Source: Celeribacter sp.
GTDB taxonomy: Bacteria > Pseudomonadota > Alphaproteobacteria > Rhodobacterales > Rhodobacteraceae
Reading direction: 5' to 3'
DNA: 64,000 nt
Assembly: GCF_048261515.1 (NCBI RefSeq)
Contig: NZ_JBLXFZ010000002.1
Coordinates: 23,347 to 87,346 of the forward strand
The position numbers and the translations under genes were made by a program. Below the pieces are notes generated by a model, which was given only the letters and a program-made list of their open reading frames with translations, made no database searches and had not been told where the DNA came from. The stretch's first letter is position 1; the number at the start of each line of letters is the position of its first letter. Of the stretch, positions 28,981 through 51,145 are shown one piece after another.

Positions 28981-29115
28981 CTATCCAATGAAGAGCGACA
29001 GAATATCGGACAAGATGCTGAGCAGATCGTCAGCAAGAACGATCATATTCGCCGCGGCCAAAGCCAAAATTTGAAGGTCGCGTTCTGTACGCGTTTTGTT
29101 GTTTGAAGTCGTCAT
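28981..29115 (-). CDS. 44-aa small protein with a hydrophobic C-terminus
   Basis: MTTSNNKTRTERDLQILALAAANMIVLADDLLSILSDILSLFIG; AGGAG RBS; stop 4 nt before the ATPase start. Confidence 0.55.
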   Translation of the reverse strand: MTTSNNKTRTERDLQILALAAANMIVLADDLLSILSDILSLFIG

Positions 29116-29294
29116 GATGACATCTCCTAATGATGGTAGGAGTCCCGAGTATCGAACTCGGCCGTCCGCGCTCATCTGGCGCCAATTCTCGGGGGTATAA
29201 GACCCGACCGCACACCTGTGCTGACTCCCGTTGCTGGAAGCAGTGCTAATCAACCGATCAGCGTATGGTGTGGATCGTGCTCTTGGTCATCATG
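29116..29294 (-). ncRNA. Structured 5' leader (candidate cis-regulatory RNA)
   Basis: Series of hairpins (GCTGATC/GATTAGC, CTTCC/GGGAG, TCGGG/CCCGA, CCGAGT/ACTCGG) ending in CTCCTA/TAGGAG, which occludes the RBS. Confidence 0.45.
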
Positions 29295-29300
29295 CGGGGT

Positions 29301-29329
29301 ATATGGGATTAAGGTGCATGTTGGTCAAG
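29301..29329 (-). promoter_or_regulatory. sigma70-type promoter
   Basis: CTTGAC-N17-CCATAT, close to the rhizobial RpoD consensus CTTGAC-N17-CTATAT. Confidence 0.55.
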
Positions 29330-29738
29330 GGGAGGAGGAGAAGAGTCAATCTCGTTTTTCCGCAAGACTTTGTTGAACAGATCTGAAGTCAGACGATATG
29401 CCAGTCTCGATTGTGTCCTTCGTCTCAGTGGTCTCGGATCGGAGTGTCTCATGAGCCTGCGCAATTCGACATAGTGTTAAAGCGTCATCATCTCGGCCAG
29501 CTTCGGTTCGGTTCTTCTCATTGTTTTGGCGGTAAAATTTCCCATGGCATGAATGTTTTGAACATTTGCTCTTGCCATTTAAATTATTTGTAGTCACAAA
29601 TTGGACTATACAAATTGGAGTCGACGGATTGCTTGCGCTTTCCTTGGCTTCAGTGGGGCGGCGGTTCGCGTTTGCTGCCGGATTTTTATGGATGGCCTCG
29701 CCGGCCGATGCCCGTTCGCAACTTAGGAGTTTTGCTTC

Positions 29739-50564: not shown

Positions 50565-51087
50565 ATTTTGATCCTTTGACGGAGAAAGTGCCGTCTCACT
50601 GTGTGTTGCGCTGACAAATCATTTTGTCAGCGCGCTGTCCAAGTCGTTTGATCGACGGTGCCGCCCGTGGCCGTGAGCATTCTGTTCGAAAACAGACCGC
50701 AACTACGCGATGTCATGGCGCAGCTGTGGCGCACGACAAAATCGGCAAGCATCCGAAGCATCAGATTCCTGCTCGGGCATGTGACAGCTGAATTTTGATG
50801 ATAGAATATCGTAATCCACTCTGGCGGGCGACGCGCCACTGCCGAAGAAGACCACAACTTTGTGATCTACATATAGTCTCTTTGCACCCGAATTGCAATG
50901 ATTGTGGTCCCGCTCTTGTTTTGACGCCATAGCGGCGGAAGCACAGTGCGAGCGGGCCGAGCATAGAGAGTGTCCGCAGTTCGTAATTTGGCAAAGCCGT
51001 TTACCATCAAGATCGCTCGAATGAGCCGCGCGGGTATCAGTGCTTGATTTTGCTGCATTGATAGGGTTTACGCTCACACCATAGCGT

Positions 51088-51145
51088 AAGGACCCGGTGA
51101 GAGCCCGGGTGGCTCTTCCGGCCGCTGATCCGCCGGACAACCCTG
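51088..51145 (+). ncRNA. sul1-like cis-regulatory RNA motif
   Basis: GGACCCGGTGAGAGCCCGGGTGGCTCTTCCGGCCGCTGATCCGCCGGA directly upstream of a SulP gene, matching my recollection of the alphaproteobacterial sul1 motif; needs an Rfam check. Confidence 0.6.

Follow-up and report, generated by a model that had tools for sequence, protein, structure and literature searches.

A tRNA-Ile(UAU)-family cloverleaf in the leader of a peptide-ATPase operon on a Rhodobacterales island and its possible role in a translational switch

Introduction

A 64,000-nucleotide stretch of Celeribacter sp. DNA (contig NZ_JBLXFZ010000002.1, positions 23,347 to 87,346 of the forward strand; hereafter the window) carries on its minus strand an operon that consists of a structured RNA leader, a small open reading frame (sORF) encoding a 44-residue peptide and the gene of an AAA+ ATPase. 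The leader begins with an 11-codon upstream open reading frame (uORF) and contains a tRNA-family cloverleaf, whose anticodon UAU is cognate to the rare isoleucine codon AUA of the uORF. The same RNA has a closed fold, which masks the Shine-Dalgarno (SD) sequence of the sORF. Both folds are conserved and supported by covariation, and they are mutually exclusive because helices P3, P1 and P7 of the closed fold occupy the acceptor 5', D-arm 3' and acceptor 3' strands of the cloverleaf, respectively. We lean, by somewhat more than an even chance, toward a cassette that applies the logic of a trp-type attenuator to translation initiation of the sORF-ATPase operon. An earlier note made from the sequence alone had described an RNA-gated small ORF coupled to an ATPase on an island. 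This reading is partly supported and was right in spirit, but it missed the tRNA and the cognate rare codon.

A Cloverleaf of the tRNA-Ile(UAU) Family

Judged from its sequence, the leader contains a member of a long-variable-arm tRNA-Ile(UAU) family, for which both charging and decoding of AUA would be predicted (Table 1). The cloverleaf was reached through a sub-threshold Rfam match to tRNA-Sec together with two additional cassettes. This match is the sole one to the tRNA clan and scores 20.7 bits in the window and 28.8 bits in locus L085. ARAGORN calls no tRNA in the window and misses this copy. The host genome has no other tRNA with the anticodon UAU and a single copy of this gene.

Six island copies aligned with plain MAFFT have 97.6% of their cells paired in the cloverleaf; 8 pairs are compensated, compared to 2.5 in shuffles. 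The pairing holds in an alignment of 25 sequences (97.1% paired), where 127 cells are compensated versus 38.8 in shuffles and 18-27 in slid controls. Acceptor pair 6-67 is U-A, A-U or G-C across the copies. Because neither of these nucleotides has a partner in the closed fold, the covariation of this pair supports the cloverleaf specifically. The anticodon-loop pattern YU-UAU-RN, A73 and the CCA columns are invariant in the family alignment and the window copy conforms to all of them. The fifth T-stem pair (columns 70-88) covaries as well, being CG in 11, AU in 5, UA in 5 and GC in 3 sequences. Hence, the acceptor/T branch is of the 7/5 type and not 8/4 or 9/3; in the window copy, A8 is unable to pair with the column of the fifth T-stem pair. 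The 12-bp acceptor/T stack, the T loop and the ACCA end make cleavage of the leader by RNase P plausible.

Two other identities were considered and rejected. A tmRNA, its permuted form included, would have its parts in a different order and finds no support from ARAGORN or Rfam. A tRNA remnant left at an att site does not fit a leader that accompanies the ATPase gene into different flanks.

Relatives of the cloverleaf are found in viruses. A pattern of the D arm and the anticodon arm detected 70 viral contigs in IMG/VR. Covariance model R2, which was built from the island copies, matches 63 of 69 viral contigs at 67-90 bits, while ordinary tRNAs on these contigs reach 22-32 bits. The 63 matches comprise 35 distinct sequences and scores across the whole family range from 67 to 116 bits. 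Most viral copies (L088-L156) lie within phage tRNA arrays, the largest of which has 25 genes. ARAGORN annotates several of them as tRNA-Ile(tat), misses others and miscalls one as tRNA-Ala. Long-variable-arm tRNA-Ile(UAU) genes thus constitute a widespread phage class, whose detection by ARAGORN was erratic in the loci examined. A search with a pattern of the T arm and CTCCTACCA returned ordinary tRNAs only. UAU tRNAs have been reviewed as largely missing from bacteria and phages (PMC8007984), and the literature searched contained no description of the long-arm viral family or of the island cassette.

Viral and island copies share a cloverleaf of about 95 nucleotides with 7/5 stems, N1.U72, A73 and an encoded CCA. 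Moreover, the tRNA-Sec-like D arm AGCAYNGGURUGC with its 4-nucleotide loop, the anticodon UAU and the variable-arm loop CAGAUNR are common to both. They differ in context. Viral copies occur in arrays or behind plain promoters on contigs of 35-57% GC, whereas the island copy forms one unit with a uORF and an mRNA. None of the viral array copies has an island-type uORF with the ending AUA-CGY-UGA. Furthermore, the acceptor stems of viral copies vary and are not coupled to an SD, whereas all seven island-type tRNAs retain CUCCUACCA and have the acceptor fixed as GGGAG.../...CUCCU-ACCA. In locus L086, the downstream SD-like sequence GGGAGAC matches the acceptor variant of that same copy, GUCUCCU.

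The Closed Fold of the Leader

The earlier note had described a leader with multiple hairpins. Folding and covariation bear this out, and most of the hairpins turn out to be arms of the cloverleaf. The 201-nucleotide leader has a fold energy of -78.6 kcal/mol (z = -4.4 versus 200 shuffles). P0, the outermost helix, joins the 5' end and uORF start, AUGAUGAC, to GUCAUCAU at the start of the sORF. P1 pairs uORF codons 6-9 with the 3' strand of the D arm, and P2 (29262-29245) contains the uORF stop codon. P3 (29243-29221) begins shortly past this stop and sequesters GGGAG, the 5' strand of the acceptor. In the viral contig L087, P2 is absent and P3 begins 2 nucleotides past the uORF stop. The stem over the SD, P7, has the sequence that was read before and a loop of 7 nucleotides. 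Its anti-SD strand CUCCUA is at the same time the 3' acceptor strand plus the discriminator of the cloverleaf.

Plain MAFFT misaligns the two leader types among 11 leaders, which renders RNAalifold unusable, and covariance models were used instead. Model R1, built from the window and L016, matched nine cassettes over their full length and gave no match among more than 60 loci of an AAA paralogue of about 366 residues. In the model-fitted alignment, 88.7% of the cells are paired in the closed fold and 23 pairs changed on both sides; shuffles gave 9.9 such pairs and slid controls 1-8. Helices P1, P3 and P7 covary. Thus, the leader structure is conserved upstream of related ATPases, as is the small ORF. 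Two further pairings, one between the variable-arm loop CAGAUGA and the sORF start and the other an extended pairing of the uORF with the anticodon loop, were considered and dropped because they are not conserved.

Promoter and Predicted Leaderless uORF

The promoter of the earlier note is present and conserved, although its -10 hexamer, read as CCATAT, has to be shifted by 1 nucleotide. Six nucleotides separate the -10 element from the uORF ATG. Because the A of this ATG is only the seventh nucleotide after the -10 element, the transcript is predicted to be leaderless, with transcription probably starting at the ATG itself (29293). The layout of -35 element, 17 nucleotides, -10 element, 6-7 nucleotides and ATG is common to 12 distinct cassettes and to L087.

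The uORF, which had likewise been read correctly, recurs across these cassettes. It has exactly 11 codons and an AUA-CGY-UGA end in 11 of the 12 distinct cassettes and in L087; the uORF of L085 has 13 codons and retains AUA. The AUA codon is invariant across the cassettes compared, and the other codons vary (MVSPRHTHSIR, MTKNMHTLSIR, MTTLMMHNSIR, MQTTIRHRSIR). Reading frame 0 is never broken among the cassettes, while frame +1 usually is. In the host genome, AUA is rare (2.8 per 1000 codons), and none of the 66 isoleucine codons in the island backbone genes (ATPase, sORF and primase-helicase) is AUA.

Immediately upstream of the -35 element, at window positions 29331-29340, lies the pyrimidine tract CTCCTCCTCC. 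CCTCC-rich tracts occupy the matching position in L002, L005, L008 and L014 and may represent a regulator site.

Table 1. Features of the operon on the minus strand, with positions in the window.
Feature	Position	Strand	Details and basis
Sigma-70-type promoter	29300..29328	-	-35 TTGACC 29328-29323, 17-nt spacer, -10 CATATA 29305-29300; from sequence
Leaderless uORF, MMTKSTIHTIR* (predicted)	29258..29293	-	11 codons; Ile codon AUA 29266-29264; stop UGA 29260-29258
Closed leader fold	29114..29293	-	Fold energy, covariance model R1, covariation counts
tRNA-family cloverleaf, 96 nt	29134..29229 (leader nt 65-160)	-	Pair counts, covariance model R2
Cloverleaf acceptor		-	GGGAGUC/GACUCCU, 7 bp, G1.U72; discriminator A; encoded CCA 29136-29134 (ACCA 29137-29134)
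Cloverleaf D arm		-	GCAC-AGGU-GUGC, 4-nt loop
Cloverleaf anticodon loop		-	CUUAUAC; anticodon UAU 29199-29197
Cloverleaf long variable arm		-	Loop CAGAUGA
Cloverleaf T arm		-	CCGAG-UUCGAUA-CUCGG, 5-bp stem
P7, anti-SD/SD	29124..29142	-	CUCCUA 29142-29137 with UAGGAG 29129-29124; 6-bp stem, 7-nt loop; from sequence
sORF, 44 aa, MTTSNNKTRTERDLQILALAAANMIVLADDLLSILSDILSLFIG	28981..29115	-	Homologue neighbours, codon-position bias, alignment, AlphaFold2
5-bp hairpin CGCGU-ACAGA-ACGCG	29079..29093	-	Within sORF codons 8-13 (R-x-x-R motif); scan match, opposite strand
AAA+ ATPase, 413 aa	27735..28976	-	Pfam PF00004; ATG 28976

A Possible Switch between the Two Folds

The anatomy of the leader lends itself to the following scheme. 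The promoter would direct synthesis of a leaderless RNA that begins with the AUA-containing uORF. With no ribosome at the uORF end, helices 1:2 (P3) and 3:4 (anti-SD:SD) would form and P0 would cover the AUG of the sORF, so that the operon would be off. A ribosome might linger at the 3' end of the uORF because AUA is decoded slowly or because termination at UGA is slow; there it would melt P1, P2 and the foot of P3 and set strand 2 free. The acceptor stem, which takes the place of the 2:3 helix, could then form, the cloverleaf would fold and the SD would be released. The folded tRNA may further be cut by RNase P and trimmed at its 3' end, which would yield a free tRNA and an mRNA whose SD is accessible. 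Translation would finally proceed from the sORF to the ATPase. A hairpin followed by a U run was looked for on the leader strand and no such intrinsic terminator was found; therefore, the output would be exposure of the SD. When the acceptor stem is imposed on free leaders, four of five lineages pay a cost of 12.1 (window), 10.9, 8.7 and 9.4 kcal/mol. When a ribosome is modeled on AUA or on the stop codon, the cost is 0-5 kcal/mol.

The codon that would be sensed is the one read by the tRNA of the leader itself, so that such a loop might be homeostatic, or it might respond to phage-driven changes in AUA decoding. A more far-reaching proposal, which we offer tentatively and with more doubt than confidence, is a self-sensing tRNA attenuator, in which the uORF would gauge the AUA-decoding capacity of the cell and so decide on both maturation of tRNA(UAU) and production of the peptide and ATPase. 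This capacity would be low in the present host, which has 60% GC; an AT-rich phage might drain it and a phage bearing tRNA(UAU) might flood it. In a bolder and speculative variant, the long variable arm would lead to charging with serine or leucine, and the released tRNA would mistranslate AUA codons, which are common in AT-rich invaders but rare in the genes of the host and of the island backbone.

Several observations weigh against the attenuator-type scheme. With a ribosome modeled on the uORF, the unpaired fraction of the sORF initiation region rises only from 0.19 to 0.36 and P7 persists in the minimum-energy structure. The minimum-energy fold of L009 already includes the acceptor stem and the cloverleaf. 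Conservation of the uORF sequence is partly explained by its own pairing in P0-P2. The anticodon stem contains a U.C mismatch at 31-39. Furthermore, six tRNA-Sec-like allo-tRNAs with the anticodon UAU were inactive in E. coli translation when tested, and two of them were toxic (Mukai et al., 2017; PMC5389517). Finally, a second group of leaders, which we call 'Type B' (L002, L005, L008, L010 and L014), has lost the T loop and CCA together with the 3' strand of the acceptor. These leaders retain the promoter and the CCAGAUGAGCG motif as well as P0-P3 and the uORF with its AUA codon, and because they keep this uORF without the tRNA features, the uORF logic is not strictly tRNA-dependent.

The 'Type B' leaders look like a tRNA that has decayed into a pure regulatory leader, and on our reading they show this transition from tRNA to regulatory RNA. 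In these leaders, the partner of the SD is instead the pyrimidine-rich loop of P4.

Comparison with Attenuators and Allo-tRNAs

The closest parallel in logic is attenuation at trp, his and thr operons, where a short leader ORF likewise contains the sensed codon and overlapping alternative helices start next to the leader stop. In the island cassette, by contrast, the 2:3 helix is the acceptor stem of a tRNA, the uORF is predicted to be leaderless and the codon sensed is the one that matches a tRNA of the very same leader. If our reading of the cassette is correct, it would be, to our knowledge, the first tRNA gene under a leader peptide that carries its own codon and the first case in which a translational riboregulator uses a tRNA acceptor stem as its switching helix. 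The cassette might also offer satellite-like islands a route to sense a helper or an invading phage via codon-decoding capacity or the tRNA pool.

The closest parallel in RNA structure is provided by the allo-tRNA(UAU) genes described near toxin-antitoxin (TA) systems and transposons (Mukai et al., 2017; PMC5389517). A tRNA-Sec-like core, a long variable arm, the UAU anticodon, mismatches that weaken stems and a mobile-element context are common to these RNAs and the island copies. However, an 8/4 or 9/3 acceptor/T branch is the defining trait of allo-tRNAs, compared to 7/5 here; they were reported chiefly from Acidobacteria and soil, and have been described without linkage to a uORF or an SD (PMC5389517). 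Mukai et al. suspected a non-translational, regulatory non-coding role for the allo-tRNA(UAU) (PMC5389517). The proposed switch would, if true, provide a testable function for these puzzling UAU-containing, tRNA-Sec-like RNAs near mobile elements.

Alternative Explanations

A simpler account would do without any switch: a tRNA-Ile(UAU) gene with its own promoter was acquired horizontally and is transcribed together with the mRNA, and the putative uORF is nothing but the 5' leader of the pre-tRNA. The tRNA family is indeed genuine and common in phage arrays, co-transcripts of tRNA and mRNA such as that of the E. coli tufB operon are established biology, and the modest opening of the SD in the thermodynamic modeling fits this account. 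Yet the uORF keeps its length, frame, AUA and UGA across cassettes in which its other codons differ, and does so even in the tRNA-less 'Type B' leaders. The covariation of P1, P3 and P7, an acceptor that is fixed to the SD/anti-SD sequence in the island copies only, and viral array copies devoid of the island-type uORF also speak against plain co-transcription, which we regard as improbable. We consider it still less probable that the cloverleaf is a tRNA mimic or decoy that binds a protein recognizing tRNA-Ile (IleRS, TilS, a modification enzyme or an anticodon nuclease), with binding setting the fold of the leader. Such a role would suit an anticodon loop and UAU that are invariant while the stems vary, the weakened 31-39 pair of the island copies, and the behavior of the related allo-tRNAs, which failed in translation, were toxic in two cases and are located near TA systems. 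It is harder to reconcile with viral relatives that stand beside ordinary tRNAs in low-GC phage arrays, where decoding of AUA would be useful, and with island copies that retain A73, CCA and all other positions invariant in the family. Moreover, the cassette encodes no candidate binding protein.

The earlier note had compared the region to the immunity systems P1 c4-icd-ant and P4 CI-kil and to type I TA modules, in which case a leader cut by RNase P would block a harmful sORF in cis or in trans. The layout agrees well: a promoter precedes a structured RNase-P-type RNA, which forms part of the leader of a phage- or satellite-like operon; next come a small ORF that must be translated for the sake of the following gene and that coupled gene itself. 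In the present case, the operon resides on a satellite-like island that also has primase-helicase genes. Both c4 and CI are substrates of RNase P (PMC5499578). In addition, segments of the leader are complementary to the SD and AUG, and heavy masking suggests a costly product. What does not carry over is the RNA itself. c4 and CI are antisense hairpins without a T loop (PMC5499578), whereas the leader contains a full tRNA with the anti-SD inside the acceptor stem and has no sequence or Rfam similarity to c4 and CI (P1/P7, P4). The Rfam scan, run both at gathering score and with E values up to 10, returned no c4, TA or riboswitch family and only the sub-threshold tRNA-Sec match. Action in trans is unlikely because the processed tRNA would bury the anti-SD in its acceptor stem, and a sequence scan of the strand opposite the leader found no promoter-like site from which an antisense RNA might arise. 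The peptide, too, is acidic and predicted to be amphipathic, and L087 combines the cassette and an ATPase gene in the absence of a small ORF. Thus, an RNA-controlled module stands insofar as a structured RNA masks the SD and start of a coupled sORF on an island, while its identification with c4 or type I TA is not supported. An immunity RNA or a type I TA-like module seems to us an unlikely explanation.

The Small ORF and Its Probable Coupling to the ATPase

The 44-codon ORF and the ATPase start just behind it are present as the earlier note had them, and a small ORF of this type adjoins the start of every close ATPase homologue. The distance between the sORF TAG and the ATPase ATG is 4 nucleotides; throughout the homologues the spacing is either 4 nucleotides or an ATGA overlap, which supports an arrangement for translational coupling. 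Substitutions in the sORF are most frequent at third, less frequent at first and rarest at second codon positions, e.g., 13/5/16 between the window and L002. The core ANxIVLxDD is conserved. AlphaFold2 predicts a single long amphipathic helix for residues 3-43 with a pLDDT (confidence score) of 84. The conserved aspartates, the net acidic core and distant relatives that are clearly not transmembrane-like, together with the predicted helix, may point away from the typical cationic membrane toxin.

The hairpin within sORF codons 8-13 has its stem kept as CGCGC/GCGCG with differing loops in L002, L005, L014 and L008. In some relatives, a T run follows on the opposite strand, which gives the element a terminator-like appearance.

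The ATPase and the Mobile Island

The ATPase contains a Lon-type AAA module with Walker A motif GTGKS, Walker B motif IINEID and an invariant Trp253 in a putative pore loop. This module is preceded by a private N-terminal domain of about 200 residues, and the protein ends about 60 residues past it. The NCBIfam lon match lies far below its cutoff; a profile search of the PDB also places Lon nearest, and Foldseek aligns the ATPase to LONP1/LonA with a TM score of about 0.5 over about 280 columns. Hence, LonA is nearest by both profile and fold. Nevertheless, the AAA module alone matches: the N domain of LonA and its C-terminal Ser-Lys protease domain are absent, and the ATPase is a protein of 413 residues that has an N-terminal domain of its own and is partnered with a 44-residue helix.

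Homologues span 33-80% identity; those in Tritonibacter, Celeribacter, Primorskyibacter, Yoonia and metagenomes have 35-80%. In the relatives, the leader-sORF-ATPase unit converges on a VapE-like gene or on a split primase/helicase pair (246 and 647 residues), and integrases, transposases or plasmid genes lie nearby. This supports the view that the unit forms the backbone operon of a replicative mobile island of Rhodobacterales. In the window, a type I-E CRISPR-Cas operon is located downstream of the ATPase. No convincing match to a defence system was obtained with PADLOC for the ATPase, for the peptide or for the neighboring genes, and BLAST searches of plasmids and phages with the leader and the ATPase returned no close relatives.

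A scan of genome contigs with the single ATPase protein gave no match. The alignment-based scan of contigs mostly detected the separate AAA paralogue of about 366 residues, which has no leader cassette. This family (L020-L079; N-terminus MTRATTTIPF...) is well conserved and present in several copies per Roseobacter genome. It is also found on Cereibacter and Paracoccus plasmids, and the copy at L042:2740-3840 adjoins a class II ribonucleotide reductase.

Variant Cassettes and Further Observations

Cassette and ATPase do not always occur in the same combination. A Cognatishimia homologue of the ATPase (L017:2471-3918; 41% identity) has an overlapping acidic small ORF of 52-66 residues, and its upstream region is unrelated, with neither uORF nor tRNA and with a WYL-domain gene. 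In the viral contig L087 (12314-14296), an island-type cassette stands directly before a 442-residue ATPase homologue (33% identity) with no small ORF between them; a PrtN-family regulator gene is divergent and an AAA_25 helicase gene is nearby. In L086 (1548-3171), the tRNA cassette, whose uORF start is mutated from ATG to ATC, is followed by two RNase T-like exonuclease ORFs and an Xre/MbcA-type antitoxin. In L085 (1084-1617), the tRNA cassette and its 13-codon AUA uORF precede a 140-residue ORF without assignment. Elsewhere in the window, positions 51087-51142 on the plus strand match the Rfam sul1 RNA family with 75 bits.

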